Source: Nitrospirota bacterium | GTDB taxonomy: Bacteria > Nitrospirota > Leptospirillia > Leptospirillales > Leptospirillaceae | Direction: 5' to 3' | Length of the DNA stretch: 64,000 bases | Assembly (NCBI GenBank): GCA_027314645.1 | Contig: DAHVAL010000007.1 | Location: 18,758-82,757 of the forward strand | Shown here: one piece after another, positions 17,291 through 46,340 of the stretch | How positions within the stretch are numbered: position 1 is the first letter of the stretch | How the letters are laid out: every line of letters begins with the position of its first letter | Made by a program: the position numbers and the translations under genes | Notes under the pieces: generated by a model | The model's database searches: none | What the model saw: only the letters and a program-made list of their open reading frames with translations | What the model was told of the DNA's origin: nothing

Positions 17291-17359
17291 CGTCACCCGG
17301 ATCTTGGGGCCAAAAAGACGGGTGTCCGAACCCCTGTGTGCAGGACCAGGGAATCACGG

Positions 17360-19027: not shown

Positions 19028-19179
19028 GAGCACTCCAGATTTTCATAAAGGTTATAAAGATAATAATCTAATAACATATTTAATTGATAAGGTCAAGGGA
19101 GCCTGGGAGAGATCATGAGAAGCAGGAAATCCAAAGGTATGAAATGTAGGGATTTGAACGTGGAGGAGAGGCCTCTTTC

Positions 19180-19208
19180 TTGACTTTTGGAGCCCTTTTT
19201 AGGATAGT
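19180..19208 (+). promoter_or_regulatory. Candidate sigma70-type promoter for the lipoprotein array (TTGACT-N17-GATAGT)
   Basis: TTGACT at 19180-19185, a 17-nt spacer, and GATAGT at 19203-19208. It lies in an AT-rich divergent intergenic region about 80 nt upstream of ATG 19286. Confidence 0.25.
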
Positions 19209-19285
19209 TGAGGAACAAACTTATCGAATTTAACATCTTTCGGAAGTATTAGCGGAGTCAAAGGATTCGGGTGTTTAGGAGTATT

Positions 19286-20656: not shown

Positions 20657-20821
20657 AATTCCCCCAAAGGCAGGATCGTAAGGCGGCAATGTGAATGAAT
20701 CGAACGAAGAAGTTTAGCCAGTGGCTCCCATGGACGCTTGGATCCCGATCGATCGGAAATTCCGGCAGACGGCCAGGTGCCACCGTTCGTCAAAAACCCT
20801 ACGAGAAGATATGAGGATGCT

Positions 20822-22042
20822 GTGGCAGGAAAACGGGACTCAGGCGGACCATTGAGACGCCTTCGATCTCTTCTATCGGGGCTTGGGGTCTGCTGCGTGG
20901 GGGCGGGACTCCTGACGCTCATGTCGTGCGGGGGAAGCTCGAATTCTTCCGGTCCTCTGGTTCCTCTTCCCAACGGCCAGATCGGCTCCCTGAATTACGC
21001 CAATGGCTCACTCGCGAACTGTTTTGTGTCGGATCTTGCCGCTTGCTCGTCGACAAACTACCTGGGAGCCAATCCGATCTCCGCTTTGGCGGCCGCGACC
21101 ATCTCCTCAGCAAACTACCTCTACTGGGGGGACAGCGCGGGAAACATCGACTCGGCCTCCATCCCCACCAATCTTACAACCTATCCTTCTCCTGTTGTCT
21201 GTGCCAATACGACCGCGACTTCGGGCTATAAAATACGGTCTCTCGCTGTCGTTCCGGCCGCGTCAGGGCCTCTCCTCTATGCAACGGCCCAAGGGGTTTA
21301 TTCCCTCCCGCTATTATCCTCATCCGGTCAATGCACTAATTCTTCAACGGCAGGGACACTTATTTCCGGAACCTCCAATATCCCGATGTCTCTTGCGTAC
21401 AATGGTTCGACCAACCTCGTCATCGGGGTGACCTCTTCCTTCCAGTCTTACAGCTGCACCACATCATCCCCCATCTGTATCTCCCATGGAAAGTTGACGG
21501 GCCTTCAGGACACCTCCCCCCAGATCACCGCCATCGCGTCGGACCCAAATTACGCGATCGTGTATCTCCTGGCAATCGGGACCAACAACAACCGGATCTA
21601 TGCGTATCAGGTCAACTCGAACGGGTCCCTCTCCTACCTCACCAATTATACCGGACCCGAGTTGAGCAGCCCCCAGGGTCTGACGCTGTTTCAAGGAAAT
21701 ACCGGGACCCAGAATTACTGCACGACCGGTCCCTGCACCTTCCTAGACGTCACCAACACGACCAACACGACCATTACCCAGTACGTGCTGACCTATTCGT
21801 ATTCGGGAACCACGCCGAACGGCGTGTCGATCAATCAATTCAACCTCGCCTACTACAATTGCGATTTGATTGCGCCGAAGGCGATCGCGGCCATTCCCCT
21901 CATGGACCCGACCACCAAACTTCTCAATACTCCCAATGTCTTTGTGGGGGAGGCCGGAACACAGGCCGGTCCCTGTTTGGGAATCCTGTCTACGGGAACC
22001 TACGGAAACAATGTCACCGCCTACACGGTTAACAGCGAATAG
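20822..22042 (+). CDS. Putative lipoprotein, paralogue A (unknown function)
   Basis: Track ORF 20738..22042. The likely start is GTG 20822, with GAGGA 4 nt upstream. Lipobox LLTLMSC. Ten Cys in the mature part. Shares blocks with the next gene (ITQYVLTYS, AIASDP.YA.VY, GNNVTAYT). Confidence 0.7.
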   Translation: MAGKRDSGGPLRRLRSLLSGLGVCCVGAGLLTLMSCGGSSNSSGPLVPLPNGQIGSLNYANGSLANCFVSDLAACSSTNYLGANPISALAAATISSANYLYWGDSAGNIDSASIPTNLTTYPSPVVCANTTATSGYKIRSLAVVPAASGPLLYATAQGVYSLPLLSSSGQCTNSSTAGTLISGTSNIPMSLAYNGSTNLVIGVTSSFQSYSCTTSSPICISHGKLTGLQDTSPQITAIASDPNYAIVYLLAIGTNNNRIYAYQVNSNGSLSYLTNYTGPELSSPQGLTLFQGNTGTQNYCTTGPCTFLDVTNTTNTTITQYVLTYSYSGTTPNGVSINQFNLAYYNCDLIAPKAIAAIPLMDPTTKLLNTPNVFVGEAGTQAGPCLGILSTGTYGNNVTAYTVNSE

Positions 22043-22110
22043 GATTTGACGGCTCCCATGGACATTCCCCGCACATGCTCACCTCTAGGTTACCGGTGGA
22101 CGGAGCACGA

Positions 22111-23295
22111 ATGAACGCCAGAAAAGCCGGCGCGCATTTTCGGAAAACGACGCCCCTTCTCCTGGGCGTTCTCTTGGGGGCCTCCTTTTTCTCCCTTGCG
22201 GGATGCTCCAGCTCCTCGGGATTCTCGGGAGCGACGACTCCGCTCCCGACCGGGCAGACCGGATCGCTGGCCGCGCTTGCCGCCGCCCCGGGAAACTGCT
22301 ACGTCTCGGACTCGTTACCATGTTCGCCCTCGGCTGCCTCCACTGGAAGCAAAGGAATTACCGCCCTCGCAACTGTCACGTACGGCTCCAGCAATGCTCT
22401 TTTTTTGGGGGATTCCAATGGCGATGTCTACGAGGCCCCCGTCGGCGGCGCCTCCACGCTCCCGTCGCCTTCCCATTGCATCGCCGCCGGATCGGGGTCC
22501 AAGATCCTCTCCCTGGCCCTGATACCGACATCAACATCCCCGGGGACCTTGTTCTACGCCACCTCCTCGGGGGTTTCCACAGCGGCCGTCACTTCCTCAT
22601 GTGGACTTACCACGGGAACTCCCATCACAACAGTCACGACCCCTTCGCTCCTGGCCTACAATCCCTCGGCGACAGTCGTCATCGGGGCGACGACGGCGGG
22701 AACGTTTTTTTCCTGCACCATTACCCCCACCCCCAGCTGCACTTCCCGAGGGTCCCTTCCAAACTTTCCCGGAGGGGCCACGGTGAAGGCGATCGCCTCC
22801 GACCCCCAATATGCGGTGGTCTACGTGGTGACCGACTCCAACGGGTCGGACGCGATCAGCTTCTACTCCGTCGGCTCGGGAGGAAGCTCCCTGACCTTTA
22901 TTGGCTCCTACACGGGCTCCGAACTGAACGTCCCTGTGGCGGTTTCCCTGTTCCACGGCGCAAATCCCACCCAGAACACCTGCACCTCGACCACGGGAGG
23001 GTGCAACTTCATGGATGTGGCGAACGGCGGAAATTCCTCCATCACCCAGTACGTGCTGACCTACAGCTTCTCCAATGGCACCCCCACGGGGGTCTCCCTC
23101 ACTCAGTTCAATGCGGCCTATCTGGAATGCGATATCATCAACCCCACCTCCATCGCGGCGATTTCCTCCCCCACCTCGGGGGCCCCGGCGGTCTTTGCCG
23201 GAGAGAACGGCACGTCCTTCGGCGAGTGCCTGGGGGTGACCGCGGGCACGCCGTTTGGGAATAACGTGACGGCCTATACCGCCACGGGAGAATGA
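22111..23295 (+). CDS. Putative lipoprotein, paralogue B (unknown function)
   Basis: ATG 22111 with GGAG 5 nt upstream, in track ORF 22075..23295. Lipobox FFSLAGC. Ten Cys in the same order as paralogue A. An identical 19-nt stretch cccagtacgtgctgaccta occurs in both genes. Confidence 0.7.
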   Translation: MNARKAGAHFRKTTPLLLGVLLGASFFSLAGCSSSSGFSGATTPLPTGQTGSLAALAAAPGNCYVSDSLPCSPSAASTGSKGITALATVTYGSSNALFLGDSNGDVYEAPVGGASTLPSPSHCIAAGSGSKILSLALIPTSTSPGTLFYATSSGVSTAAVTSSCGLTTGTPITTVTTPSLLAYNPSATVVIGATTAGTFFSCTITPTPSCTSRGSLPNFPGGATVKAIASDPQYAVVYVVTDSNGSDAISFYSVGSGGSSLTFIGSYTGSELNVPVAVSLFHGANPTQNTCTSTTGGCNFMDVANGGNSSITQYVLTYSFSNGTPTGVSLTQFNAAYLECDIINPTSIAAISSPTSGAPAVFAGENGTSFGECLGVTAGTPFGNNVTAYTATGE

Positions 23296-23330: not shown

Positions 23331-24242
23331 ATGGACCGAACATCCAGTCCTTCCCAGGAAGCCCTTCTCGACCGATTCGAAGAACATCTCCTCCTGTCCC
23401 AAGGGCGCTCCGAGAACACAGTCCTCGCCTATCTCTCCGACCTGCGCTCCTTTTCGCGGCATCTGGCCGCCTTCGGCAAAACGCTTTTGACCTTCGAGGA
23501 AGACGATCTCGCACGCTATTTCGAGGGCACGAAGAGGGTCTCGATCCGGACGCGCTCCCGAATCCTCTCCGCCCTGCGAACCTGGTCCCGGTTCCTTGAA
23601 TTGGAACGGCTCCGGACGGAGCCGCTTCCTCAAATGGACACCCCAAAAATCCCCAAATCCCTTCCCAAGGTGCTGTCCCAGGAAGACGTGGCCCGGTTGC
23701 TTGAGACGCCGGAGGAGAACAGGCCAGAAGGAATTCGCGACCGGGCTCTCCTGGCGTTTTTTTACGCCTCGGGGCTTCGGGTGTCCGAAGTCGCGGGCTT
23801 TACCCTCGACCGCTTGGATGTGACGACCGGCGCGCTTCGCGTGACGGGAAAGGGCGCCAAGGAACGAATCTCCTTCCTCGATCAAGGATCTCTCGAACGG
23901 CTCAGACGTTATATCGAGACGGTCAGGGCTGCCTGGAAGCCGACGGCCCCCGAACTCTTTGTGGCAAGAAACGGTCAGCCGCTCTCGCGCCAGGCCCTCT
24001 GGACGCTGATCAAGAAATACGGGAGAAAGGCCGGCATTCTCTCCCGGCTCTCCCCCCATGTCCTTCGCCACTCCTTCGCGACCCACCTCCTCGAAAACGG
24101 CCTCGACATCCGCTCGATCCAGGTCCTGCTCGGCCATGAAGACATCCGGACCACCGAAATTTACACCCACGTCTCTCTCACCCAGCTGAAAAAAACCCTG
24201 GAAGATCACCATCCCAGGGGAAAAAACGGCCCCGATGGGTAG
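23331..24242 (+). CDS. xerD: Tyrosine site-specific recombinase XerC/XerD family
   Basis: RDRALLAFFYASGLRVSE, HVLRHSFATHLLENGLDIRSIQVLLGHEDIRTTEIYTH (R..HxxR..Y catalytic signature). Size of 303 aa is right for the family. Confidence 0.85.
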   Translation: MDRTSSPSQEALLDRFEEHLLLSQGRSENTVLAYLSDLRSFSRHLAAFGKTLLTFEEDDLARYFEGTKRVSIRTRSRILSALRTWSRFLELERLRTEPLPQMDTPKIPKSLPKVLSQEDVARLLETPEENRPEGIRDRALLAFFYASGLRVSEVAGFTLDRLDVTTGALRVTGKGAKERISFLDQGSLERLRRYIETVRAAWKPTAPELFVARNGQPLSRQALWTLIKKYGRKAGILSRLSPHVLRHSFATHLLENGLDIRSIQVLLGHEDIRTTEIYTHVSLTQLKKTLEDHHPRGKNGPDG

Positions 24243-25211: not shown

Positions 25212-26441
25212 TCAGGGGTCTTCGGACGCGCTGAGAAGGCGCTCCGCAATCGAATCCAAAAGATGCAGCCCTTCGCCGCTCAGCACGAGAACCTCTTCAT
25301 TCGTACGGTCCACAGTTCCGTACCCATTTCGTACGATTTCATCAAGAATCGTTCGTACGGATTCCTGATCCGACCCCGTCCTCAACCAGCGGAGAGGCAG
25401 TCCCGTATTGAGCCGTAAATTCGTGTACAACCGCTCGTAGTAAACCTCTTTGTCGCTCAGGATCTCCCGGGCGGCGAAGGGGTGCCGGTTCTCGCCTCTC
25501 GACAATCGTACGTATTCTAGGAGTGAACGTACGTTCTCAGACCGTACGTTCCCGCATGTCTGATGGGCCCCCGGTCCAAGCCCGAGGAACTCTCCACCCC
25601 GCCACACATGGATGTTGTGGCGGCACCCGTCCCTGTCCGACCGGGCAAAATTCGAGACCTCATACCGCACCCACCCCTCTGCACAAAGCCCATCGCAGCA
25701 TCGGCGCCAATTTTCAGCCGCCCGTTCCTCCAGATCCTCCTTCGTTTTCCCTTGGGACTTTCGGAGGGACAAAACGGTTTTTTCTTCGATCACCAACGGA
25801 TAGATGGATAAATGGTCCAAGCCGGAGGCCTTGAGATCCCGGCAAATCCCGAGAAAGGATTCGAGGTCGAACTCATCCCCGGTGATGATGAAATCCATCG
25901 AGATCGAGGCTTGGGTCTTTTGGCGAAGCGATGCGAGACGCGTTATCGGATCCTGGACCGGAGAGTGCCGGCCGAGAGCCTGAAGGGAGGCACCATCGAT
26001 GGCCTCCATGCCCAGGGACAGCCGAAGTCCCGGACCGATTCGGGAGAGTCTCTCGAGGATCCCGTCGGATAAGGCCTCGGGACGGCTTTCAAAGGTCACC
26101 TCTTTTGCGCCTTCCAAAAAGGGGGCAAGAAGAGCGATCAAACGGTCGAGGGAGCCTTGCGGGATGGAGGTGGGAGATCCCCCTCCAATATAGACGGAGA
26201 CCGGCGACTCATCGCGGAAGGCGTTTCTGACCCGTTTGACCTCATATTCCAAGGCGTCCAGGTAATCCGGAAGAAGACCCTCCGAAACGGTCACCGGAAT
26301 CGCACAATAATCGCAGCGCTCCGGGCAAAAGGGAACCTGGACATAGACCGCCTTCCCAGACGGGCGGTCCCATCGATTTTCGATCATCGTTTTATCCGTA
26401 CGTTCAAGGCCGAACCAGGGGGAGTGTTCCATTCCCGTCAC
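25212..26441 (-). CDS. hemW: Radical-SAM HemN-like protein (haem chaperone HemW / oxygen-independent coproporphyrinogen oxidase family)
   Basis: YVQVPFCPERCDYCA radical-SAM CxxxCxxC motif, SVYIGGGSPT, and a C-terminal HemN_C-like region. Confidence 0.85.
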   Translation of the reverse strand: MTGMEHSPWFGLERTDKTMIENRWDRPSGKAVYVQVPFCPERCDYCAIPVTVSEGLLPDYLDALEYEVKRVRNAFRDESPVSVYIGGGSPTSIPQGSLDRLIALLAPFLEGAKEVTFESRPEALSDGILERLSRIGPGLRLSLGMEAIDGASLQALGRHSPVQDPITRLASLRQKTQASISMDFIITGDEFDLESFLGICRDLKASGLDHLSIYPLVIEEKTVLSLRKSQGKTKEDLEERAAENWRRCCDGLCAEGWVRYEVSNFARSDRDGCRHNIHVWRGGEFLGLGPGAHQTCGNVRSENVRSLLEYVRLSRGENRHPFAAREILSDKEVYYERLYTNLRLNTGLPLRWLRTGSDQESVRTILDEIVRNGYGTVDRTNEEVLVLSGEGLHLLDSIAERLLSASEDP

Positions 26442-26663: not shown

Positions 26664-26672
26664 TGGTACAAT
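26664..26672 (+). promoter_or_regulatory. Candidate extended -10 element (TGgTACAAT)
   Basis: TG at 26664-26665 and TACAAT at 26667-26672, located 70 nt upstream of ATG 26740. No convincing -35 element. Confidence 0.3.
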
Positions 26673-26706
26673 GCCGTTCGAAATTCCTAGAGGACAGTCG
26701 AACGGT

Positions 26707-26722
26707 ACGTTCGTACGAACGT
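26707..26722. promoter_or_regulatory. 16-bp perfect palindrome ACGTTCGTACGAACGT (operator-like or 5'-UTR hairpin)
   Basis: Read directly from the sequence and self-complementary over all 16 nt. It lies between the candidate -10 element and the RBS/ATG at 26740. It shares the CGTACG core with a motif cluster in neighbouring hemW. Confidence 0.4.
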
Positions 26723-26739
26723 TCGGAGATGGGGGGGAG

Positions 26740-27180
26740 ATGGGCTATCGGGAAACGGCGCAGGAATTTCTCGACCGTTCGCGGGAAGAGCTGCGGCGTC
26801 TCGAGAACGAGATGGCTCTGGTAAACACTGTGGTACATACGCTTGAAAAGGCGCTCGAAGCAGAGAAGGCCCCGGAGCCCGCCTCCATTCCCCCCCGACC
26901 CTCCCCCTCTCGCCTTTTCCCCCAATTTTCCCCCTCGATGCCCCCCGAAGAGTCCCCGCCATCCGGTGACAGGAAACCGGTCGGCGAGATCGCCGAAGCC
27001 CTCCTCAGAGAGAGGCGGGCCCCCATGAGCCTCGAAGAGCTGTATCAATTGATGAAGGGGCGAAGGGATATCCTGGCTTCAAGCGATCTCAAAAATGCCA
27101 TTCGGGTGGCGCTGATCCGGCGGAGACCCCGGATCGTCTCCGAGAAACGGGGATGGTTCCGGTATGTCGATTTTTCATGA
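26740..27180 (+). CDS. Hypothetical protein: N-terminal coiled coil, Pro-rich linker, C-terminal winged-helix (HARE-HTH-like) segment
   Basis: ATG 26740 is preceded by GGGGGGAG; the track ORF starts at 26671. Coiled-coil segment EELRRLENEMALVNTVVHTLEKALEAEK. C-terminal segment VGEIAEALLRERRAPMSLEELYQLMKG...RVALIRRRPRIVSEKRGWFRY. Confidence 0.55.
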   Translation: MGYRETAQEFLDRSREELRRLENEMALVNTVVHTLEKALEAEKAPEPASIPPRPSPSRLFPQFSPSMPPEESPPSGDRKPVGEIAEALLRERRAPMSLEELYQLMKGRRDILASSDLKNAIRVALIRRRPRIVSEKRGWFRYVDFS

Positions 27181-27228: not shown

Positions 27229-28095
27229 TTACTCGCTTGAGAGGATCCTCCTGATCGTGCGGATTTCGGGGGGATAGGTCCAGAGGACCGGCAGCAGTCC
27301 GGAAAGATGGGTCGCATCCACCTTCTCCGATCCTTCGTAGAGGGCGATGGCCTTCAAGACCTTGACCACCAACTTCCACCTCCGGTCCGAAAGGGAAATT
27401 CCCTCCCGCCCAAGGCGATGGCGCAAATTCCAGAGTTTTTTGATGATCTCCTTCTCGACCCGAACCTCCCGGAGCGGACCTTCCCGTACGGCCCGGAAGG
27501 ATTCGAGGGAGACCTGCGCGCAATTTCGCGGGGCCTCCCCGGTGGGGCTGTGTTCCTCGAGAAGGTCGGAAAACGAGTCGAATTGGCGAACAGGCTCGAT
27601 CAGGCACCGGAGGGCAAATCGGTCGAAGAAGGCGTCGAGATGATCGGACTGGGAGGGATGGGTGTTGCTGGCCGCGAACAGGGACAAGAGGTGGGCGGGT
27701 CTTGGCTCCGGATCGTGCCATATCCGTTCGTTCATGAAAGAGAGCAGGGTCAAAAGAAGCGATTTGGGGGCGCGGAGAACCTCGTCTAGGAACACGATCG
27801 CCCCGTCGGCGATCCCTTCTTTCATGAGCGGGGACGACTCAAGGGATCGCCGCGCGCTTTCCTGATGGAGGAGCCGCTCGAAGTAGACAAGACAGGGAAA
27901 GTGGGCGGCGCACAAACGGATGAGAAGACTTTTTCCCGTTCCGGGGGGCCCCACGAGGAAAAGATGCTCTCCGGAGAGAAGCGAAAGCACAAGTGCGCGG
28001 ATCACTTCCTCCCGTTCCTTGAGGACCCCGTTCAGGCTCCCTTCCATCGATCTGAGCGCGTCAAGAACCCTGAAAGGCTCGCTCGAACCGCTCAT
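27229..28095 (-). CDS. AAA+ ATPase of the MoxR/RavA type
   Basis: Walker A LFLVGPPGTGKS, Walker B AIVFLDEV, sensor-1 LFAASN, DRFALR, and the RavA-like motif LSDRRWKLVVKVLKAIALYEG. The ATG overlaps the upstream stop (ATGA at 28092-28095). Confidence 0.8.
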   Translation of the reverse strand: MSGSSEPFRVLDALRSMEGSLNGVLKEREEVIRALVLSLLSGEHLFLVGPPGTGKSLLIRLCAAHFPCLVYFERLLHQESARRSLESSPLMKEGIADGAIVFLDEVLRAPKSLLLTLLSFMNERIWHDPEPRPAHLLSLFAASNTHPSQSDHLDAFFDRFALRCLIEPVRQFDSFSDLLEEHSPTGEAPRNCAQVSLESFRAVREGPLREVRVEKEIIKKLWNLRHRLGREGISLSDRRWKLVVKVLKAIALYEGSEKVDATHLSGLLPVLWTYPPEIRTIRRILSSE

Positions 28096-29093
28096 TTCCT
28101 TTGCCGTCTCCCGGGGACGGGAAATCCCTCAAGAATCATCACCGCGCATCGCGTTCCCTGTTCGAGCCGGTAGGAGGGCTGCGAATCGGGTTGGGGGAGT
28201 TGGCTGCCGGCTTCGGCAAGCGCGTTGCCTCCCGCCTGCATGCCCAAGAAATCCCCCATGCTCGCTCCCGACCACCCCATCGTGTCGACAGCCTCTCCGC
28301 CAAGCATCAGGCTGTTCTGGGCGACCGAGCGCGCGATGTTCCTCCCCTTGTGCTCCGATACCTCCACCGGAACGCCCTCCCGCCCTCCATGGAGGGCAAA
28401 CCCGGTGGTATGGGCTTCAAAGCCCCCCGGATAAAGGATCCGCACAAACCGGATGCGAAGCCGGTTCTCGCGTGTCACCGCTTCGGGATATCCGAGGATC
28501 TTCGTCCCTTTGGGGAGATGGAACCCGGAGAGCGAGGCGGCGGTCATGCGCGCAATGACGGGAAGCCTGTTTCCCGGACCTTCGACCGTTTTCAGGACCA
28601 CCACATGGAGTTCGCTTCCCGCCGGAATTCGAGAGCCTTCTCCCAAAGCCCCCTGGACGCCGCCGGCCTCTCTCCGGATTTCCTCCGCCTTTCTGGCAAG
28701 CTCTGGAGATTCGGCAAGGGATTTCTTGAGGACGTTTCCGATCGCGGAAAGGACCAACGGGTCGTTTTCCAAGCCTAACCCGCGGTCTTTGGTCGACCCC
28801 GGGCCCCCACCGTCAAGGTAAACGGTCGAGCTGGTGTCGAGCGGATGATTCGGAGGGGCCGGAGTGGACACGCTCCGGGGAAAGGATTCGCCCGTCCTTT
28901 GGGAGGGAATTCGGGGAGGAGGCAGTTCCGAGGAGGCGAGATCGTTCCATCTCATTGGCCCGTTGGAACCAACGGACGCCCCTCCCTGAGAAAACGGGCG
29001 GGATGACCGGCTTCCGGAATGATTGACGGAAAAGATGAGGTAGAGCAGAAGTCCGACAACGGCGCTTCCCCCCAGAAAAAGCCATCGATTCAC
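28092..29093 (-). CDS. T4SS VirB10/TrbI-like protein
   Basis: N-terminal TM LFLGGSAVVGLLLYLIF and a Pro-rich region. C-terminal TrbI-like core IPAGSELHVVVLKTVE...LPKGTKILGYPE...RLRIRFVRILYPGG. GTGA overlap with the upstream gene at 29090-29093. Confidence 0.75.
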   Translation of the reverse strand: MNRWLFLGGSAVVGLLLYLIFSVNHSGSRSSRPFSQGGASVGSNGPMRWNDLASSELPPPRIPSQRTGESFPRSVSTPAPPNHPLDTSSTVYLDGGGPGSTKDRGLGLENDPLVLSAIGNVLKKSLAESPELARKAEEIRREAGGVQGALGEGSRIPAGSELHVVVLKTVEGPGNRLPVIARMTAASLSGFHLPKGTKILGYPEAVTRENRLRIRFVRILYPGGFEAHTTGFALHGGREGVPVEVSEHKGRNIARSVAQNSLMLGGEAVDTMGWSGASMGDFLGMQAGGNALAEAGSQLPQPDSQPSYRLEQGTRCAVMILEGFPVPGRRQRK

Positions 29094-30271
29094 CTTTTGC
29101 CTCCCCCCTTCGCCTCAAGGTCCAGGGTCTGGCTTTTCCCCGTCCCGTGATCCACACGAAGTTCGGCAAGGTACCCGTCCCTCGAAGAGGAAAGAGGGGA
29201 AGGATCGGCGGGAAGAAGGGCGCGCGCTTTGGCGTGGGGAGAAATGATCAGCCGGAATTCCCGGCTCCAGTCCTCCCCCTCCACCCATTTTTTCCTCCCT
29301 TCCCAAAACAGGGAGGATCGGAACAGGCGAAGACGGATTCCCGTCAGGGTCACCCGATGGGCGGTCTTATTGGTGATTTCAAAGAGGGCGAACCGGTCCT
29401 TTCCAAGAGCTGAAAACCCTAATAGGTCCGCCCTGATCCCTTCCTTTTCCGACCAGGCTCCGACCGGATCTTCTGCCCCTGCGGACCTCAGGGTCAGGAG
29501 GGCCTGCTCCCGGAGATCCACCTTCTCCCGGACCGCAAGGTCCTTTTCCATCTTTTGTTGAAGAGGGGTTAAGTTGACCACGGTATCGCTCGTGGGAAGA
29601 TAAAATGTCAGGAGGTCGTCCTCGGTCCCTTCCGGCACCACTTTGAGCCGAAAGGCAAATTGGCGGTGAAGCGTGTAAACGATCATGTTCGTGGTGATCC
29701 CCCGATCCCAGGTGATCGGCTTGATTTTGACGCGGCTTCCGAACACCTCTCCAAGGAAGAGTTTTGAATCTCCGAGATACACCTCCTTCGCCGCTTCGGG
29801 AAGATCGATCAAGGTGACATGGGAGACGGCGGTTCGAACGGTATACACCTTCGAAGGGTCGTAGACGACCGTCCGGATTCCTGTATGAGGGGGAACCCGA
29901 CCAGGCGGGGAGCTCCTGGGATCATGCGCGATGCTCTCCCGAATGCGTTCCGGACTGAACACAATTTCGGGATGGTCCAGGTCGGCTCCCAAAACCGGCC
30001 GACCCGGATACCGCTCTTTGGGAGGGGGCGGGGACACGGCTCCTGGAGGAAGAGCGGGCTCGGGGGGAGTAGGAAGATCTCCAAAATGGTCCCCTGTTCC
30101 TCCCCCATCATTCGCCATGGGCGCGACGGGCGGCACGGGCTGTGGCCCCTCCTTCCCTCCCGCCAGGGGTCTCCGGTCGACGGAGGAGCGGGCATCGATC
30201 AGAACCAGCGCCGGAAGAAGAATCACGACCACCGCCACTCCGAATCCGGCCCAAAAGGTGCGGTTCATCAT
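29090..30271 (-). CDS. T4SS VirB9/TrbG/CagX-like protein
   Basis: Signal/TM FWAGFGVAVVVILLPALVL and a Pro-rich spacer. Core VVYDPSKVYTVRTAVSHVTLIDLPEAAKEVYLGDSKLF...KIKPITWDRGITTNMIVYTLHRQFAFRL resembles VirB9. ATGA overlap at 30268-30271. Confidence 0.7.
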   Translation of the reverse strand: MMNRTFWAGFGVAVVVILLPALVLIDARSSVDRRPLAGGKEGPQPVPPVAPMANDGGGTGDHFGDLPTPPEPALPPGAVSPPPPKERYPGRPVLGADLDHPEIVFSPERIRESIAHDPRSSPPGRVPPHTGIRTVVYDPSKVYTVRTAVSHVTLIDLPEAAKEVYLGDSKLFLGEVFGSRVKIKPITWDRGITTNMIVYTLHRQFAFRLKVVPEGTEDDLLTFYLPTSDTVVNLTPLQQKMEKDLAVREKVDLREQALLTLRSAGAEDPVGAWSEKEGIRADLLGFSALGKDRFALFEITNKTAHRVTLTGIRLRLFRSSLFWEGRKKWVEGEDWSREFRLIISPHAKARALLPADPSPLSSSRDGYLAELRVDHGTGKSQTLDLEAKGGGKR

Positions 30272-30945
30272 GGCTTTGCGTCCGTACCAGCCAACGCGGG
30301 AGTTTCTCGATAGTTTTCGACCCAGAGGCCATAAGGATTGAAGACCGTCGGGCCTCCGCGGCGCAGGAGGAGCGTCGCCGCAAATCCGCGGGACTGGCCG
30401 GATCCCCGCCCATACGGATAGGTTGTCCGCTCTCCCGTCACCGCCACCGACCAGACCCCGCTCCGGACTTTTTGCAGTGTCACGTCCTTGACGGAGATCA
30501 CGGTATGAATTCGGGCCTTTTGAACCGTTTCAACGAGATTTTGGACCACGATCGCTCTCTTCATGCGGGCTCGGAGGTCAGGGGTCATGACCAGAAGGGC
30601 CTTTTCAAGGCGATAGGAGATCTCGAAGGAGTCGTACGCGGTCAGGTCGGAGAGAAATCCCGTGGTGAAATAACGCACGATGCGCTCGAAGTTTTTTTGG
30701 TACACGGGGTCGGATATCCGGCTCAGGACCTGCATATGGCCATCGGAGGACAGGGCGACGATCAACGACCGGTCTGTGGCGAGAACCATCAGGGCCGCGC
30801 CCACAACACCCATCAGGGCCCCGAGTCCCCAGAGGGTGCGCCTGATCCCCCGGAACCCTTTGAGCATTTCCTCGCGGCTCGCGTACGAGGAGGGAATCTC
30901 CCTCAATGGCCCCTCCGCGTTCTCCTCCCAGCTCAAATCCTCCAT
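30268..30945 (-). CDS. T4SS VirB8-like protein
   Basis: Single TM LWGLGALMGVVGAALMVL followed by a periplasmic domain of about 170 aa. It ends in the VirB8 hallmark NPYGLWVENYR (NPxG motif). Confidence 0.8.
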   Translation of the reverse strand: MEDLSWEENAEGPLREIPSSYASREEMLKGFRGIRRTLWGLGALMGVVGAALMVLATDRSLIVALSSDGHMQVLSRISDPVYQKNFERIVRYFTTGFLSDLTAYDSFEISYRLEKALLVMTPDLRARMKRAIVVQNLVETVQKARIHTVISVKDVTLQKVRSGVWSVAVTGERTTYPYGRGSGQSRGFAATLLLRRGGPTVFNPYGLWVENYRETPALAGTDAKP

Positions 30946-30948
30946 CTC

Positions 30949-32166
30949 CTAGCTCCCATTTTTTCCTGGATCCCCGTTCTCTCCGCCCGCCTTCCCCTTC
31001 TTCGGCCCCTGCGACCGATCGTCCGCCTTCTTTCTCCGTGCCGGCGTCTTGCGTTTTGGCCGATCCGGCATGGGCCCGGGAGCCTCTTTCGACGCCGTTT
31101 TATCAGAGCGGACCTTCCTGGCCCTGGGCTTAGGCCCCTCCTGAGGGTCCTTTCCGCTGGAGGCCTTTTTTCCCGGACTCTTTTCTTTTGGAGTCCGTTG
31201 CCAGATCATGCTCGTAAAGTCCATGGGACCGATCCTCAGCTGCTTTTTCCGGTAGACTCTCCGCCCTTGCCCGAGATCCTTCGTCGTGGTGCCTGTTTTG
31301 AACTCCCCCATGCCAAACGGAAGCTCGCCTTTGAGCAAGGGCTTGGACACGACATTGTGCCAAAGAGATCGGCCCAGGGATTCGGCCTGCGGCCCGACAA
31401 ACGACCCGATCCCTTCGTAGGAGCGATCCAGGAGAAGGTGGGTCAGGATGGGAACGAAGAGAATCATCAAGACAAGGACCAGAAGGATTCCGATCTCGAG
31501 GACACGGTTCACCATGGCGCTTGGCATGGAGCCCCCCGAAAGGGCCTGGTAGAGATTGATCGAGGAGAAAATCCCGATGAGGAGATTGTGGAACAGCAGC
31601 CAGAGGCTGATCTCGAGAGTGTTGCGCGCCCATTGTCCGGCCAGGAAGAAAAGTCCCGGAATCACGGCCACGCTGAACAGAAGCGGCCCGACGATATAGA
31701 GAAATCCCAAAAGGGCATACCGCACGAGAGAGAACGCGAGGACGATCACCTTGAGCCCGTCGAGGAGCACGAGGTAGAGGATTCCCATGGGGTCGGACAA
31801 AAACCCGGCAAAGGATCCCGCCGATCCGGGAATCAACGGCGATTGCCAGATGCGTTCGTAAAAGGCCAGAACGAGTGAACTCGGGTAGAGAGATTGCGCC
31901 AGGGCCCCCACGAGTGTGACCCCCTCCTCGAACCAGCTGTCGTATCCGGATATTCCCATGACGATGAACAGGAAGCGGAGCAGGTCTGAAAATACGCGCT
32001 CTCCGTTTTTGAGCTTGAGCCAAAAGAGAAGAATGGCGATGGGAAGGCTCACGAAGAGAAGAACCCGGGTCAGAGAGAGCATCTGCTGCCGGACGGGAAA
32101 GAGGACGCAGGGAATGGTCGCGGAATCCTGGAAGACCAAAAGGCCCTGGGTGGAGGGACACGTCAT
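30949..32166 (-). CDS. T4SS VirB6/TrbL-like polytopic membrane protein with a long basic C-terminal tail
   Basis: Multiple TM segments (LLFVSLPIAILLFWL, ILYLVLLDGLKVIVLAFSL, LLFSVAVIPGLFFLAG, ILLVLVLMILFVPIL) and the VirB6 position in the operon. The last 107 aa or so are Lys/Arg/Pro-rich. Confidence 0.65.
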   Translation of the reverse strand: MTCPSTQGLLVFQDSATIPCVLFPVRQQMLSLTRVLLFVSLPIAILLFWLKLKNGERVFSDLLRFLFIVMGISGYDSWFEEGVTLVGALAQSLYPSSLVLAFYERIWQSPLIPGSAGSFAGFLSDPMGILYLVLLDGLKVIVLAFSLVRYALLGFLYIVGPLLFSVAVIPGLFFLAGQWARNTLEISLWLLFHNLLIGIFSSINLYQALSGGSMPSAMVNRVLEIGILLVLVLMILFVPILTHLLLDRSYEGIGSFVGPQAESLGRSLWHNVVSKPLLKGELPFGMGEFKTGTTTKDLGQGRRVYRKKQLRIGPMDFTSMIWQRTPKEKSPGKKASSGKDPQEGPKPRARKVRSDKTASKEAPGPMPDRPKRKTPARRKKADDRSQGPKKGKAGGENGDPGKNGS

Positions 32167-32179
32167 CTAAGCCGGGCGC

Positions 32180-32764
32180 CTACCGGACCATGATCCATTG
32201 GGGAAGATCGATCCGCAAGACTTCCTGGTCGCGCAAATTGTCCGCGTGGAACTGATCGAGAACCGTTCCCTTGAGGCCCGATCGCGCGGACTGCACCTTG
32301 AGAAGATAGAGGAGGTCCTGATGAATGTTGACCAGGGTCTGGAACATTCGCCCTTCCATGTCCGCCGAGAGCCTTAGCGCTCCCTCGGGGCTTGCCCGAT
32401 AGGCAAGATCATGGACGGAGCTTCCGGAGGAATATTGGGCTTCGACCTGCGGGAGTCCGCTCATCGCCTGGCCGAGGCCTTCCGCCGCGGATTGGGTGAC
32501 CCCCGCCACTCCTCCGGCGGGGGCGGGGGCGGCCGGAGAATCATTTGGGATGGGGGGAAGCACCGGCGTGCTGTAAAAATCGATTCCTTTATTTTTTTCC
32601 TGGAACATTCCCTGCAATCGGCTCATTGTCACCCGCATCTGGTTTCCGACCCACAGGATTCGGGACTCGATGACGGTATCGGGTCCCGGGAGGATCCCCG
32701 CGGTCGCGGATCCGGGAAAAAATAAGACGAGCCCCCCGCCAATGAGCACGAAAATCCGTTTCAC
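32180..32764 (-). CDS. Secreted protein in the VirB5/TrbJ position
   Basis: GTG 32764 overlaps the VirB4 stop (GTGA at 32761-32764); the track ORF 32180..33115 extends into virB4 and I consider that extension spurious. Signal peptide KRIFVLIGGGLVLFFPGSATA. The function is assigned from position only. Confidence 0.5.
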   Translation of the reverse strand: MKRIFVLIGGGLVLFFPGSATAGILPGPDTVIESRILWVGNQMRVTMSRLQGMFQEKNKGIDFYSTPVLPPIPNDSPAAPAPAGGVAGVTQSAAEGLGQAMSGLPQVEAQYSSGSSVHDLAYRASPEGALRLSADMEGRMFQTLVNIHQDLLYLLKVQSARSGLKGTVLDQFHADNLRDQEVLRIDLPQWIMVR

Positions 32765-35268
32765 CTCCGTTCTCCTTCCCTCTCCCAGCGTTTTACGGAG
32801 AGAGCGAGAAGCCCTTCGAACATGGATCGCCCGGGATCGAGTTCCTGTTCGATCATGCGGTCTTCTTCGGGGGAGCGTGCGGCGATCACGTATTCGAGCG
32901 GGGACGGCTCGAGCCGCAAGACCCCTCTCCGGGCTCCCATGGTGAGGTAGCACTCCGCATAGTCGCCTCGCACAAACTCGAGGCTGTCGATAATGGCGAT
33001 TTCGCGGTCGGAAAGCCCGATCCTTCGATAGGTTTCCGGAAGAACCGAGCAGGGAAAGATCCACTTCCAGGAGGAATTTCCGAGGATCCCCCCTTCCCGG
33101 CCCTCTTCTAGCCAATCTTCGGGAGACTGGCTCATGGCGATCACCCCTCCTCCGAATTTGCGGGCGGTGCGATACATGTGCTCAAGGAACCCGGTTCCCC
33201 GAAACTGGGTCATCAGACGATGGGCTTCGTCAAAGACAAAATAAAGGCGCCGGTTCTTCTCCCGGAAAAGGCGCTCCATCGAAATTCCTGCAATGAAGGC
33301 AAAGACGATCCCCCGAAGGGCCTCCTGCCGGTCAAGGCCCGAGAGGTCGAAGGCCAAAATCCTGGATTTCGAGACAAATCCCCTGGAATTGTTGAAGAGA
33401 GGGGCGTACAGGCCGGTGGCCCACGCTTCCAGGGTTTTTGCCATCCTCTGGGAGACCTCCTCATCTTCGGCATCACGCCCCCGGAAGGCGTAGAGGGTCC
33501 GAACGAGATCGGTCAGACAAGGGCGTTCCTCCGGGTCGGGGAGGCGGTCATAAAGATCTCCCAAACATTGGGCGAGAATCTTCCGGTGGAGAGGGAGCAC
33601 CGGATGGGAGGTGATCAGGAAGGTTTCGATCAGGGCGACGAGAAATCCCATCCAGTCCGGATCATAGAGCCCGCCCTCTCTGGCAAGGTCGCTTCGAAGG
33701 GGAAAGGGATTGAGAGAAAACGACCCCGAAAGATCGATGCGGACATAGTCTCCCCCCATGAATCGGGCCAATCGTTCGAAGTCTCCCCCATTCTCGACGA
33801 TAATGGTCTGGTGCCGGGGATCGGCAACCAGGAACTGGCAGAGCATGAGCTTTACGCCAAAGGACTTTCCTGACCCGGACCGGCCCATCACCACCCCGTT
33901 GGCGTTGGGAAGCTCCCGGCTCCAAAGGTTGAGCCCCAGGATTTCCTGCCGATGGTTCTTCGTGAGGAACCAGGGATCGTCCTGATCCGGAAAACGGTCC
34001 CAAACGGGAACGAAACGAGCGGTCTGGGAAGAGGTCATCAGTTCCCACCGGTCGTTCGCATCCCCGTCGAGGGGGAACTGGCTTCGAAACAGCGGCCACT
34101 GGCGGAAGGGCTCAGGCGGCACCAACGCCCCGTCGGCCTCTCCGAAATTTCTGAGCGCCTGCATGCCCGATTCGGAGAGAGATTTCCGCTCGGAGTGCCA
34201 GTATCCGAAGGTGAGATTGGCGATAAAGGGAGCCCCTTCTTCTTCCGGCCCCTCGTGCATTCCCCGAAGAAAGTGCTCCTGTTCTGCGATCACGGATTCG
34301 AGCCGATAGGAGGTTCCGGGCAAAAGCAGGGTGAGGAATCGGTTGATCGTCGCATTCGTTTGAACCGATCGGCTTGCGAGCGAACGATCGGGCTTAAAGA
34401 GATTGAGCGTGAGGTCGCAATCAAAATCCGGCCCTTCAAGGATCGGCGCCAGGGTGTCCCGGTGAAAGGCGGCCGGGAGCTGCCGAAGGGCATGGAAACG
34501 CCCCCAAAGGACGGACCCGTCGGGACGAAAGGCCCGAAGGTCTCCGGGAAACTCCTGAAAGGTCGTCTGGAAAAGAGGCGGAAGGCTCCCGCGACGATCC
34601 CCCCGAAAGGGATTTCCGACAATCAGACCTGGATTGGCCCGTTCGGCCAAATGACAGAGGAGCGTTGCTTCATCTGCTCTGTCCGCCTCCATCCCCGCCC
34701 CCGGAAGCAGGGCGAGGACCGTGTTCTCAAGATCCTGGATCTCCCGAAGGCGCCTTTCAAAATTCCCCTCCTTTCTCGATTCCTTCCCCCGTCCGAAGGT
34801 CGGGCCGGCGCGCGGGATAAAGGAGAGCTTGAGGGTCTCTTTTTCGTTCGGGGGATAGCCGATCAGACCCAAGACAAGCCGTCGGCGCCGTGCCGGGCGC
34901 GATTTGAGGTCGCGCAACCGATCTTTTGAGAGCGCCTCGGCGGAGGGGTCATTGTCTGTCCCGCGCATCCCCCTCTCGGGATTTGAGAGACCTTCCGGAT
35001 AGATTCCCGGATGGTCGAACGGTTTCCCGTGACGGACCTCGACACGGAACTGAAGCCCGAATCCTTCGGGAAGATGCGCAAAGAGATTCACAATCCCCCG
35101 ATAGATTTGCGACGACTCCTCCTCGTCCAGCGGGAACATGTTCACCCCTGAAAGGAACAGGAGACGCCCGAGCCTTCCCGTCCGGCCCACCAAGGTGCGC
35201 CCCTCCAGCCGATCGAGATCAAAGAGCCGATGGAGGAGACTCCCTTTCTCCGAGCCCTTACGCCACAA
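32761..35268 (-). CDS. virB4: T4SS ATPase VirB4/TrbE/CagE family
   Basis: 835 aa. Walker A MGRSGSGKSFGVK, Walker B YFVFDEAHRL, and AMSQSPEDW. TTG start at 35268 overlaps the virB3-like gene. Confidence 0.9.
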   Translation of the reverse strand: MWRKGSEKGSLLHRLFDLDRLEGRTLVGRTGRLGRLLFLSGVNMFPLDEEESSQIYRGIVNLFAHLPEGFGLQFRVEVRHGKPFDHPGIYPEGLSNPERGMRGTDNDPSAEALSKDRLRDLKSRPARRRRLVLGLIGYPPNEKETLKLSFIPRAGPTFGRGKESRKEGNFERRLREIQDLENTVLALLPGAGMEADRADEATLLCHLAERANPGLIVGNPFRGDRRGSLPPLFQTTFQEFPGDLRAFRPDGSVLWGRFHALRQLPAAFHRDTLAPILEGPDFDCDLTLNLFKPDRSLASRSVQTNATINRFLTLLLPGTSYRLESVIAEQEHFLRGMHEGPEEEGAPFIANLTFGYWHSERKSLSESGMQALRNFGEADGALVPPEPFRQWPLFRSQFPLDGDANDRWELMTSSQTARFVPVWDRFPDQDDPWFLTKNHRQEILGLNLWSRELPNANGVVMGRSGSGKSFGVKLMLCQFLVADPRHQTIIVENGGDFERLARFMGGDYVRIDLSGSFSLNPFPLRSDLAREGGLYDPDWMGFLVALIETFLITSHPVLPLHRKILAQCLGDLYDRLPDPEERPCLTDLVRTLYAFRGRDAEDEEVSQRMAKTLEAWATGLYAPLFNNSRGFVSKSRILAFDLSGLDRQEALRGIVFAFIAGISMERLFREKNRRLYFVFDEAHRLMTQFRGTGFLEHMYRTARKFGGGVIAMSQSPEDWLEEGREGGILGNSSWKWIFPCSVLPETYRRIGLSDREIAIIDSLEFVRGDYAECYLTMGARRGVLRLEPSPLEYVIAARSPEEDRMIEQELDPGRSMFEGLLALSVKRWEREGERR

Positions 35269-35503
35269 AGTAGACTCGGTTCCTGAGATGGTAGAGCACC
35301 ATGGCGCGGATGGTCCCCTCCCCCGTTTTTCTGACCCAGAATAAGCCGATCATGGAAAGCCCCAGGGCAAAACATAAAAAAACCAGATTAAGCCCTGTCA
35401 GAAATCCGCCCAGAACCCAGAAGGCCGGAACGCACATGTCCCAAGGGATCAGAAATCGTCCAAGAAGAGGCGTCCTCAGAATGTGGCGGTAAGAAGGGAT
35501 CAT
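35258..35503 (-). CDS. T4SS VirB3/TrbD-like small membrane protein
   Basis: 81 aa from ATG 35503, with an ATGA overlap on the pilin gene stop at 35500-35503. LRTPLLGRFLIPWDM is followed by two hydrophobic segments. Canonical position between B2 and B4. Confidence 0.65.
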   Translation of the reverse strand: MIPSYRHILRTPLLGRFLIPWDMCVPAFWVLGGFLTGLNLVFLCFALGLSMIGLFWVRKTGEGTIRAMVLYHLRNRVYFVA

Positions 35504-35766
35504 AATCCCGCCCAGACTGTCAGGGTATCCCAAATGGCTTTGGACATGAGAACGAGCGCTCCCCCGGCCACGGTCATGACCCCTTGCCGGATGCCATCCG
35601 CGTCATGGCTTTTCATGGCGAACCCTGCCCGGGCCATCCCAAGGATGAACAGGAAGGCTCCCAACCCGTAGACCACAAAATTCGCCACGTTGTTCGCGAA
35701 CGCTGTGATCAGGGGGTTTTCTCCAAAATTGTCGACGAAGATATTGATTAACCTGGCATGCGGCAT
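35500..35766 (-). CDS. T4SS VirB2/TrbC-like pilin
   Basis: 88 aa with GGGAGGG 5 nt upstream of the ATG. Two hydrophobic helices (ANFVVYGLGAFLFILGMARAGFA and VMTVAGGALVLMSKAIW) as in TrbC/VirB2. It is the first gene of the operon. No obvious signal peptide in this frame. Confidence 0.6.
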   Translation of the reverse strand: MPHARLINIFVDNFGENPLITAFANNVANFVVYGLGAFLFILGMARAGFAMKSHDADGIRQGVMTVAGGALVLMSKAIWDTLTVWAGL

Positions 35767-36330
35767 TTTTCCCTCCCGGCTCGGGGAAAAGCAAGGAGAG
35801 TGCCAACAACCAAGCTAGCGATAAATATATATTTTTTAACTTCCCCCTCGCGTCATCTGAGACAATCTTGAACACACCTTCAGGATAAGATCTTTCAACA
35901 TCCGGCGAATACGCGCTTTCCCACCCTTCAGAAATGACATAAAGATAATGATTCTCATAATCACAACTGGAATAATTTTTCGCACACTCCATACTCTTGC
36001 AACTGGTTTTCGTCAAAGATATAATGGCAGAGTTTTGAAAAAGGCAGAGTGAATCCGCACGACTCAATATGACTTTCCGCACATCACTGCAGCGTGCTCT
36101 GAGATTCAAATGGCCCGCGTTCTGCCAGCCTGACAATGGGGTCGGGGCATCTAAACAGAACGACGGGGGTCATGAAGAGAAGGCCTCTCGATCAACGGCG
36201 AATCGATGGGTTTTCCATCCTCCCTCGATCACTTTCCAAAGGCACTCTTCCTAAAAACCGGGTTCCTCCCATGCATGATCAGACATGCATCGGACCCATC
36301 TATCATTCCATTCACCGAGGAGGGAATTCC

Positions 36331-37581
<1,251 letters not shown>

Positions 37582-46298: not shown

Positions 46299-46340
46299 AA
46301 GGGAGCAGGCCGAGGGTCCTCCCGCCACCCCCGATTGGCA

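Follow-up and report, generated by a model that had tools for sequence, protein, structure and literature searches.

A type IV secretion operon with a MoxR-type ATPase conserved across sampled Leptospirillia: a candidate host-domesticated device for DNA uptake or exchange

The DNA analysed here is a 64-kb stretch (hereafter the window) from a Nitrospirota bacterium of the Leptospirillaceae (assembly GCA_027314645.1, contig DAHVAL010000007.1, positions 18,758 to 82,757), in which the region 27229-35766 encodes a type IV secretion system (T4SS) as a nine-gene minus-strand operon. A pilin gene of the VirB2 type is followed by genes assigned to the VirB3, VirB4, VirB6, VirB8, VirB9 and VirB10 positions, with an additional gene for a secreted protein, here called X194, between virB4 and virB6, and the operon ends with a gene for a MoxR-type ATPase (Table 1). 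An initial annotation of the stretch had described nine co-directional genes with near-continuous translational coupling, and re-reading each junction upholds this description: all nine open reading frames (ORFs) are present, and the eight junctions comprise five 4-nt overlaps (ATGA or GTGA), one 11-nt overlap, and gaps of 13 and 3 nt. The second residue of VirB4, W2, is kept at this position in 7/7 tabulated orthologues of the clade that shares 67-77% identity with it. The GC content of the operon (0.59-0.61) shows no clear difference from that of its flanks in the GC profile.

Table 1. Coordinates of the operon genes, their junctions and associated features (window positions unless a locus is named; B2 to B10 stand for virB2 to virB10)
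Feature	Position	Strand	Basis or remark
Sigma-54 (RpoN) type -24/-12 element TGGCACTCTCCTTGCT	35790..35805	-	consensus match and conservation
VirB2/TrbC-type pilin, 88 aa, two hydrophobic helices	35500..35766	-	Pfam TrbC 2.9e-8
B2/B3 junction	35500-35503	-	4-nt overlap
VirB3/TraL-like small inner-membrane protein, 81 aa, one transmembrane segment	35258..35503	-	position, topology
B3/B4 junction	35258-35268	-	11-nt overlap, TTG start
VirB4-family ATPase, 835 aa, Walker A GRSGSGKS, Walker B FVFDEAH	32761..35268	-	Pfam P-loop_TraG 2.7e-16
B4/X194 junction	32761-32764	-	4-nt overlap, GTG start
X194, predicted secreted all-helical protein in VirB5 position, 194 aa	32180..32764	-	signal-like segment, conservation
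X194/B6 junction		-	13-nt gap
VirB6-like polytopic membrane protein, 405 aa, at least 4 transmembrane segments	30949..32166	-	topology, position
VirB6-like C-terminal basic disordered tail, 81 aa, 25 K+R vs 10 D+E	30952..31194	-	
B6/B8 junction		-	3-nt gap
VirB8-like bitopic protein, 225 aa	30268..30945	-	Pfam VirB8 1.4e-4
B8/B9 junction	30268-30271	-	4-nt overlap
VirB9/CagX-like outer-membrane core protein, 393 aa	29090..30271	-	Pfam CagX 1.6e-10 (above cut-off)
B9/B10 junction	29090-29093	-	4-nt overlap, GTG start
VirB10/TrbI-like protein, 333 aa	28092..29093	-	Pfam TrbI 4.7e-5 (below cut-off)
B10/MoxR junction	28092-28095	-	4-nt overlap; MoxR ATG overlaps virB10 stop (ATGA)
RavA/MoxR-type AAA+ ATPase, 288 aa, AAA+ module and lid only	27229..28095	-	Pfam, AlphaFold2 model
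Small convergent gene: coiled coil, Pro-rich linker, C-terminal domain	26671..27180	+	between hemW and operon, adjoins moxR
Low-GC metagenomic cluster loci	L094 1-10952; L095; L096 3254-14050; L097, L098, L102		

The component assignments rest on Pfam, scanned at family level with the window proteins, their orthologues and outside relatives, each sequence being scanned singly. The VirB2, VirB4, VirB8, VirB9 and VirB10 identities first proposed are backed by these scans, in part below the curated cut-offs and more firmly at family level, and the motifs GRSGSGKS, FVFDEAH and NPYGLWVENYR are all found in the translations. The pilin reaches 34.2 bits with the TrbC model, above the curated cut-off of 27.9. 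Its residues 1-25 (MPHA.L.N.FVDNFGENPLIT.FANN) are highly conserved and unlike a typical Sec leader or signal peptide. The leaders of VirB2/TrbC pilins, by contrast, are long and variable. Processing of the pilin may differ or be absent. The ensuing VirB3-like gene lies between the pilin gene and virB4 and overlaps both; its product carries a conserved R-x2-L-x2-P-x-L-G motif ahead of the transmembrane segment, and one sequence of the combined scan weakly matches Pfam TraL (5.5e-4), the window protein itself returning no Pfam match. For VirB4, the NCBIfam TraC/VirB4 models report E-values of 4e-47 to 7e-26, the best of them, TraC-F-type (TIGR02746, 4e-47), staying far under the family cut-off (160.6 bits, cut-off 567), while VirB4_CagE (TIGR00929) scores 90.6 bits (cut-off 643). 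The best PDB match is 4ag5, a Thermoanaerobacter VirB4 (1e-20), while TrwK matches at 2e-4. Judged by these profile and PDB scores, the window VirB4 appears nearer to the TraC-like or Firmicutes-type VirB4s than to the VirB4/CagE family of ComB4 and the mating-pair-formation type T (MPF-T) systems. Assignment to type F (MPF-F) does not hold, as the TraC equivalog falls under its cut-off and none of the nine products matches an F-specific family (TraU, TraW, TraN, TraH, TraF).

X194 possesses an N-terminal hydrophobic signal-like segment (residues 4-22, topology prediction), and its gene is kept in all orthologous operons. It returns no match in Pfam, NCBIfam or PDB sequence and profile searches, and its AlphaFold2 model, built with 19 homologues, exhibits long helices at a predicted local distance difference test score (pLDDT) of 56 and yields no match in a Foldseek search. 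An identification as VirB5 was therefore not retained, and the label is positional. The VirB6-like protein shares 22% identity over 310 residues with its counterpart in L009, a relative that bears a type IV coupling protein (T4CP). Three of the ten sequences scanned for this position weakly match Pfam TrbL/VirB6 (best 1.3e-3), while the window protein itself returns no match in Pfam or in a PDB profile search. Its basic C-terminal tail is found in 9/9 orthologues with a length of 81-103 residues, a net charge of +14 to +19 and an unconserved sequence, and is absent from the relatives L010 and L094. VirB8 scores 22.2 bits against a Pfam cut-off of 23.2, has a single transmembrane segment (residues 38-56), and 9/12 sequences scanned for its position match the VirB8 model (best 2e-6). 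VirB9 is also recognized by the NCBIfam VirB9 model (5e-10) and comprises an N-terminal signal or anchor and a Pro-rich linker. VirB10 is predicted to be bitopic, with an N-terminal transmembrane segment, a Pro-rich region and the C-terminal TrbI domain, and seven of the 11 sequences in this position match TrbI (best 3e-13). The predicted topologies agree with the roles assigned, for the VirB3- and VirB6-like proteins together with gene position. The locus thus has what identifies a T4SS: a VirB4 ATPase with intact Walker A and B motifs, a TrbC pilin, and the VirB8/VirB9/VirB10 scaffold of diderms.

The ninth gene, which the initial annotation had counted and left unnamed, encodes an ATPase with the Walker A motif GPPGTGKS, the Walker B motif FLDE and arginine motifs. 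Its Pfam matches are all above their cut-offs: bpMoxR (3.7e-26, 91.9 bits), AAA_5 (2e-15, 57.5 bits) and AAA_lid_8 (8e-13, 48.5 bits). The AlphaFold2 model has a pLDDT of 93, and among PDB structures it is best matched by the AAA+ module of RavA from E. coli (TM-score 0.88 over 288 residues, 28% identity). The two proteins have the AAA+ module and lid in common, whereas the C-terminal triple-helical and LARA domains of RavA are both missing from the operon MoxR which, unlike RavA, sits inside a T4SS operon. MoxR ATPases typically have a partner with a VWA domain, ViaA-like in the case of RavA. No VWA family match, ViaA-like or other, was returned by Pfam among the operon products or their neighbours. 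Every orthologous operon has moxR, coupled to virB10; the 4-nt overlap of the two genes is kept in L005 and L007, and also in L094 from the second lineage described below. Most MoxR homologues (33-38% identity) are bpMoxR proteins of 374-407 residues, the recovered loci of which (L103-L175) have no T4SS neighbours, the Leptospirillia loci among them excepted. The short MoxRs P0221 and P0224 and those of seven metagenomic loci (L096-L102) depart from this pattern and have T4SS neighbours. In a neighbour-joining tree, the sampled bpMoxRs form a group that excludes the MoxRs linked to a T4SS in either lineage, and the latter share a length of about 285 residues and a C-terminal LW[ST]Y motif, each of which occurs in 0/19 sampled bpMoxRs. 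These traits of sequence and gene order indicate that MoxR is a genuine accessory of one kind of T4SS, linked to VirB10. In the literature searched, including the 2025 review of T4SS nomenclature, the association of MoxR with a T4SS is not mentioned.

The second of these lineages is metagenomic and of low GC content (34-39%; L094-L102), and carries a chromosomal T4SS cluster with the short MoxR in the order VirB4, secreted protein, VirB6-like, VirB8-like, VirB10-like, MoxR, T4CP-like, small transmembrane protein, VirB9-like. One of its loci, L096, belongs to a 315-kb contig, where the housekeeping genes cobD, mqnC-like, thiG and scpA surround it; neither a TrbC pilin match nor a relaxase was seen in this lineage. 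As in the window, moxR directly follows the virB10-like gene and encodes a protein of ~290 residues with the LW[ST]Y end. It differs from the window in keeping a T4CP-like gene directly after moxR and in having the VirB9-like gene downstream of the T4CP. The proteins of the two lineages share 31-33% identity for MoxR and 25% for VirB4. The idea that MoxR merely replaces a T4CP at the same position was considered and rejected as the sole explanation, since this sister lineage has both.

By its VirB4 homologues, the window belongs to the Leptospirillia. These homologues comprise one of 100% identity, about 19 at 67-77% and five at 43-46%, some of their clusters being named Leptospirillum sp. Group IV 'UBA BS' or Leptospirillia, and the next matches are at ~25%. 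An exhaustive HMMER search of 1.84 billion representative proteins reports two full-length VirB4 clusters, of 68% and 44% identity, beyond which identity falls to 30%, and no plasmid VirB4 exceeds 28% identity among the matches listed. Sequence identities thus indicate that the VirB4 clade is isolated. The nine-gene order, moxR included, is identical in all loci recovered, from both the 67-77% and the 44-46% VirB4 clades, group II included, the latter covered via the MoxR P0148, named Leptospirillum sp. Group II 'C75'. The loci share an NAD-binding dehydrogenase, ABC, FtsX and AttH on one side, and the small convergent gene, hemW and XerD on the other. In L. ferriphilum, of group II, the locus is auto-annotated as LFTS_01463-01471; as the initial annotation had supposed, the literature searched holds no other description of the operon in this lineage, and the main text of the paper on the L. 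ferriphilum type strain (PMC5772234) is silent on it.

The T4SS proteins diverge at rates like those of the neighbouring housekeeping genes, and none of the nine ORFs is disrupted in the full-length loci of any lineage examined. Synonymous sites are saturated in all genes (pS 0.57-0.80) and the dN/dS ratio is about 0.1-0.3 in eight genes and well below 1 in all, so that each of the nine shows purifying selection. Conservation in the locus is highest for the pilin, above the neighbouring icd: its identity is 91-98% where that of VirB4 is 68-76% and that of icd 86-93%, and still 80% where that of VirB4 is 45%. In comparisons with L012, L016 and L001, its dN is 0.02-0.04 against 0.18-0.44 in the other genes. 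Its synonymous sites have diverged no less than those of the genes around it, and the near-invariance therefore reflects constraint and not recent transfer. A pilin that is near-invariant between species is unusual for T4SSs and points to a tightly constrained structural role.

Some loci show local variants. Over 9 kb of the operon, the group II contigs L092 and L093 show 100% identity, the one difference being a 61-bp deletion in virB8 (L092 ~7700-7800) that results in a predicted VirB8-VirB9 fusion of 599 residues and may be a strain variant or an assembly error. In L007, from the 45% clade, an element of the IS605 family (18815-20480; OrfB/TnpB and Y1 transposase) lies directly downstream of moxR, where the small convergent gene and hemW would otherwise be. 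On the other side, it is only in the 67-77% clade that icd (36136-37581 in the window) adjoins the pilin gene; between the dehydrogenase and pilin genes, L001 additionally carries a PhdYeFM/PIN toxin-antitoxin pair (6966-7599). Because gene content varies there, the pilin-gene side of the operon appears to tolerate insertions.

Upstream of the pilin gene lies a putative sigma-54 promoter element, the 3' end of which is 23 nt from the pilin ATG, with a GGAGGG ribosome-binding site in between. It is the sole match to TGGCAY-N5-TTGCW in the 64-kb window, where 0.04 are expected by chance. The core TGGCA-N6-TTG is found at fixed spacing in 8/8 aligned orthologous loci amid unconserved intergenic DNA, and the C at -12 is not kept in the distant clade. 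A scan of the operon for sigma-70 promoters and terminators gave chance-level counts, and none of the sigma-70 sites on the minus strand lies upstream of the pilin gene. In chemostat and chalcopyrite bioleaching cultures of the L. ferriphilum type strain, the orthologues LFTS_01463-01471 are near-silent, with baseMean values of 3-45 (PMC5772234), which fits the conserved sigma-54 element. The operon would then be switched on only by a specific signal, via an enhancer-binding protein encoded elsewhere. No Sigma54_activat protein is returned from the window by the Pfam scans, save a weak match (0.016) of MoxR itself.

Pfam scans of ~50 further ORFs across the window (~60 window ORFs in all) report no T4CP, relaxase, VirB11, VirB1/SLT, VirB7, Rep or Par family, which bears out the absence of a T4CP, relaxase, VirB11, lytic transglycosylase and replication or partition gene noted initially. 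Beyond a weak match of VirB4 itself, none of the ~60 ORFs matches T4SS-DNA_transf, TraG-D_C or TrwB, and in the orthologous loci the 10-kb flanks likewise lack a T4CP. The relaxase families are likewise absent from the window scans, novel relaxases being outside the reach of profiles. If a conjugative system is taken to comprise VirB4, T4CP and relaxase (CONJ sensu Guglielmini 2011), the last two are both lacking near this VirB4. The initial annotation had also stated that no integrase adjoins the block. This stands as regards an ICE (integrative and conjugative element) integrase, although a XerD-like tyrosine recombinase gene lies 3 kb off (23331-24242). It is the only recombinase noted in the surroundings and, because it is syntenic in related genomes, it is a housekeeping gene and not an ICE integrase. 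Scans for tRNA genes and Rfam families returned no matches in the window, and hence no tRNA-linked island boundary is seen. The operon is flanked by hemW (25212-26441) and icd, as first described, with the small convergent gene added on the hemW side.

Outside the operon, the ORFs with Pfam matches belong to chromosomal housekeeping families only. Those on the left are gltB, yicC, gmk, coaBC, efp, accC, thiE, acrB, sulfite reductase, XerD, a GT2 glycosyltransferase and hemW, and those on the right icd, a dehydrogenase, an ABC/FtsX exporter, an AttH/CrtC lipocalin, a low-GC glycosyltransferase island, a CheZ-domain protein, a methyl-accepting chemotaxis protein, lgt and others. The low-GC stretch (46000-54000; GC 0.39-0.51 against ~0.57 elsewhere) encodes many GT1, GT2 and GT9 glycosyltransferases and an FkbM methyltransferase, and is probably a horizontally acquired lipopolysaccharide or exopolysaccharide island. 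A few ORFs (15839-17296, 20738-23295 and 50197-51228) return no Pfam match. Among them are three long ones, at 20738-23295 (plus strand) and 15839-17296 (minus strand), the first two of which have positional counterparts adjoining XerD in group II and III/IV-like loci (L005, L093), also without Pfam matches. The small convergent gene is found at the same position in L001, L005, L014-L016, L018 and L093, and adjoins moxR in all Leptospirillia clades examined. Its product has no significant Pfam match and a C-terminal domain that reads as HARE-HTH-like; in L. ferriphilum, the orthologue LFTS_01472 bears the label COG3343, RNA polymerase delta-like (PMC5772234 supplement). The protein could be a DNA-binding partner or regulator of the system, or be unrelated to it.

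The closest outside VirB4s, P0026 and P0029, sit in the compact clusters L009 and L010. The order in L010 is that of the window (TrbC, VirB3, VirB4, small protein, VirB6, VirB8, CagX, TrbI), except that TrbI is directly followed by the T4CP, at the position that MoxR takes in the Leptospirillia operon; a serine recombinase is also close by. L009 follows the window order through VirB8, where its contig ends, and has its T4CP upstream. Unlike the window operon, neither cluster has MoxR. VirB11 is also absent from the sequenced parts of both, and its lack in the Leptospirillia operon therefore looks like a trait of the lineage and is no sign of reduction; it is the missing T4CP and relaxase that mark this operon as domesticated. 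Uncharacterised compact clusters with a VirB4 of the TraC_F_IV type (L009, L010 and one named Elusimicrobia homologue) have VirB4 E-values of 1e-39 to 1e-60. A VirB4 placed among conjugative types had been named at the outset as evidence against a non-conjugative reading; the nearest outside VirB4s do adjoin a T4CP, although at only ~25% identity. The view that the locus is not a conjugative element is otherwise sustained, as no intact self-transmissible element is seen and all sampled Leptospirillia lineages have the operon in the same chromosomal context and under purifying selection.

Among characterized systems, the ComB DNA-uptake system of Helicobacter pylori had been put forward as having a near-matching parts list. 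Both are chromosomal systems of the VirB2-4/VirB6-10 type, devoid of VirD4, relaxase and VirB11, with a VirB4-class ATPase as the core motor, and neither is self-transmissible. The likeness holds only for these absences. ComB comprises the lipoprotein ComB7 and has neither a VirB5 nor a second ATPase, whereas the window operon has a gene in the VirB5 position, MoxR, a VirB4 unlike ComB4 and no VirB7-type lipoprotein, as no Cys lipobox is found and the 3- and 13-nt gaps leave no room for a gene. The window operon also has the sigma-54 type element. The MOBless T4SSs (Guglielmini et al. 2011), Bordetella Ptl and Bartonella Trw resemble it as VirB4 clusters without a nearby relaxase, read as conjugation systems co-opted for the host. 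Compared with these, the window operon is devoid of VirB11 and has MoxR, a single ultra-conserved pilin and an isolated VirB4 clade. In Sulfolobales, acidophiles in which DNA passes between cells in contact, the Ced system imports DNA by a VirB4/HerA-class ATPase with neither relaxase nor T4CP. Ced is an archaeal system whose membrane components are unrelated, and NCBIfam CedD matches the window VirB4 only at 0.022.

From these components, the machine would span the envelope, with an inner-membrane set (VirB3-like, VirB4, VirB6-like, VirB8) and an outer-membrane core (VirB9, VirB10). The pilin would be polymerised into a pilus or a periplasmic pseudopilus, VirB4 powering both its extraction and its polymerisation. 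Assembly and gating in classical T4SSs are the job of VirB11 and VirD4; here a MoxR hexamer may act on VirB10 or the core complex for one or the other. As there is no relaxase and no T4CP, the machine would neither process nor export DNA of its own, and the basic tail of the VirB6-like protein, if cytoplasmic, may handle nucleic acid in a ComB- or Ced-like working.

We propose, with a probability of about 0.4, that the operon is a host-domesticated, vertically inherited T4SS (mating-pair-formation) module of Leptospirillia with a role in DNA uptake or exchange. Synteny, housekeeping-like divergence, the dN/dS ratios, the absence of mobility genes in the window and the isolated VirB4 clade argue for the domestication and vertical descent. 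The role itself is more speculative: T4CP-independent, contact- or pilus-mediated uptake or exchange of DNA between cells seems the likeliest candidate, at rather less than even odds. It is ranked first because of the ComB/Ced-like logic, the basic VirB6 tail and the recombination in Leptospirillum, which has no mechanistic explanation: group II populations recombine extensively by an unexplained route (PMC2475542). Several points weigh against this proposal. The uptake role draws on an analogy of parts lists and on a basic tail that may or may not face the cytoplasm, and the operon departs from ComB in its VirB5-position gene, its second ATPase, its lack of a VirB7-type lipoprotein and, by sequence, a VirB4 outside the ComB4 clade. 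The sigma-54 promoter is predicted from sequence only, the functional link between MoxR and VirB10 is inferred from gene adjacency, and the VWA partner typical of MoxR ATPases is not seen in the operon. In addition, a ComGC-type competence protein is annotated in L. ferriphilum (PMC5772234), so that a separate uptake route may exist.

Behind DNA uptake or exchange we rank a surface filament, and then, in descending order, two-step protein secretion, a pore serving a T4CP and relaxase in trans, and a decaying relic. A filament that adheres to mineral, biofilm matrix or sister cells and translocates nothing is unlikely, and still the foremost of these alternatives: the operon encodes a pilin, a VirB5-position protein, VirB4 and the full channel scaffold, yet no substrate receptor, and constraint is strongest on its pilin gene. 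Biofilms and mineral surfaces are the habitat of Leptospirillum. Bartonella Trw, a system of VirB homologues (MPF-T), offers a precedent, although its pili are described as antigenically variable (PMC12857230) while the pilin here is single-copy and almost invariant, and exposed adhesive fibres usually evolve fast. A routine role in attachment also fits poorly with orthologues that are near-silent in both chalcopyrite bioleaching and chemostat cultures. T4CP-independent secretion of proteins, either delivered by Sec to the periplasm and then through the VirB-like channel, as for pertussis toxin and Ptl, or as toxins into neighbouring cells, is somewhat more doubtful. MOBless chromosomal T4SSs occur commonly, with protein export as their usually assumed function (PMC3158045), and T4SSs without VirD4 are covered in the 2025 review, which discusses ComB and Trw and mentions in its ComB passage that Ptl also lacks VirD4 (PMC12857230). 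However, neither the operon nor its conserved flanks hold a candidate effector, immunity or toxin gene, the sole secreted product being the small helical protein in the VirB5 position.

The operon could also be the mating-pair-formation half of a conjugative apparatus, with the genes for its T4CP and relaxase at another site in the genome or on co-resident elements, and this too weighs against a domesticated module. The genome is seen here through 64 kb; the T4CP adjoins in the nearest outside relatives, and the sister MoxR lineage keeps its T4CP beside MoxR. Leptospirillum genomes hold other tra/trb or VirB sets, including an integrated group II plasmid with tra/trb genes (PMC2475542) and, in L. 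ferriphilum DSM 14647, a second, canonical set of VirB2, B3, B4, B5, B9, B10 and B11 (LFTS_00971-00980) with baseMean values of ~66-284 against 3-45 for the MoxR-linked core locus (PMC5772234 supplement). This explanation is nonetheless a little less probable than protein secretion: the locus is core and syntenic while the other elements lie in strain-variable regions and genomic islands, and no 10-kb flank of an orthologous locus has a T4CP. T4CPs normally need their cognate VirB10 and VirB4, and the co-resident L. ferriphilum system is a distant MPF-T-like set. As to a functionless remnant of an ancient integrated element, the loss of T4CP and relaxase, the very low transcript levels in L. 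ferriphilum cultures and the deletion that fuses virB8 and virB9 in one group II contig would be in its favour. Against it stand nine intact ORFs, conserved gene overlaps and promoter element, dN/dS ratios well below 1 and the extreme constraint on the pilin, and because of these selection data a decaying relic is effectively excluded.

A more specific form of the domesticated-module proposal is that a VirB10-coupled RavA-like MoxR replaces VirB11 in a distinct subclass of T4SSs and that, in Leptospirillum, such a machine carries out sigma-54-induced, relaxase-independent DNA exchange or uptake at pH <2. We hold this version to be improbable as a whole. To our knowledge, naked DNA does not survive at pH <2.

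MOBless chromosomal T4SSs (PMC3158045) and other systems devoid of VirD4 (PMC12857230) were already known. New here are the MoxR partner, the sigma-54 type element, the near-invariant pilin, the isolated VirB4 clade and the core-genome status in an important acidophile. MoxR/RavA-type ATPases are outside the current T4SS nomenclature, and the coupling of moxR to virB10 in two deeply diverged lineages, with and without a T4CP, suggests an unrecognised energising or assembly component. Leptospirillum is an iron-oxidising acidophile that dominates acid-mine-drainage and bioleaching communities, and its natural populations are a textbook case of recombination. If the proposed role is true, the MoxR-linked T4SS would supply the missing mechanism for recombination in Leptospirillum group II populations. 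As a conserved and intact T4SS-derived machine of the core genome, testable in the cultured L. ferriphilum type strain (LFTS_01463-01471), it is a concrete candidate for the movement of DNA between cells at pH ~1.

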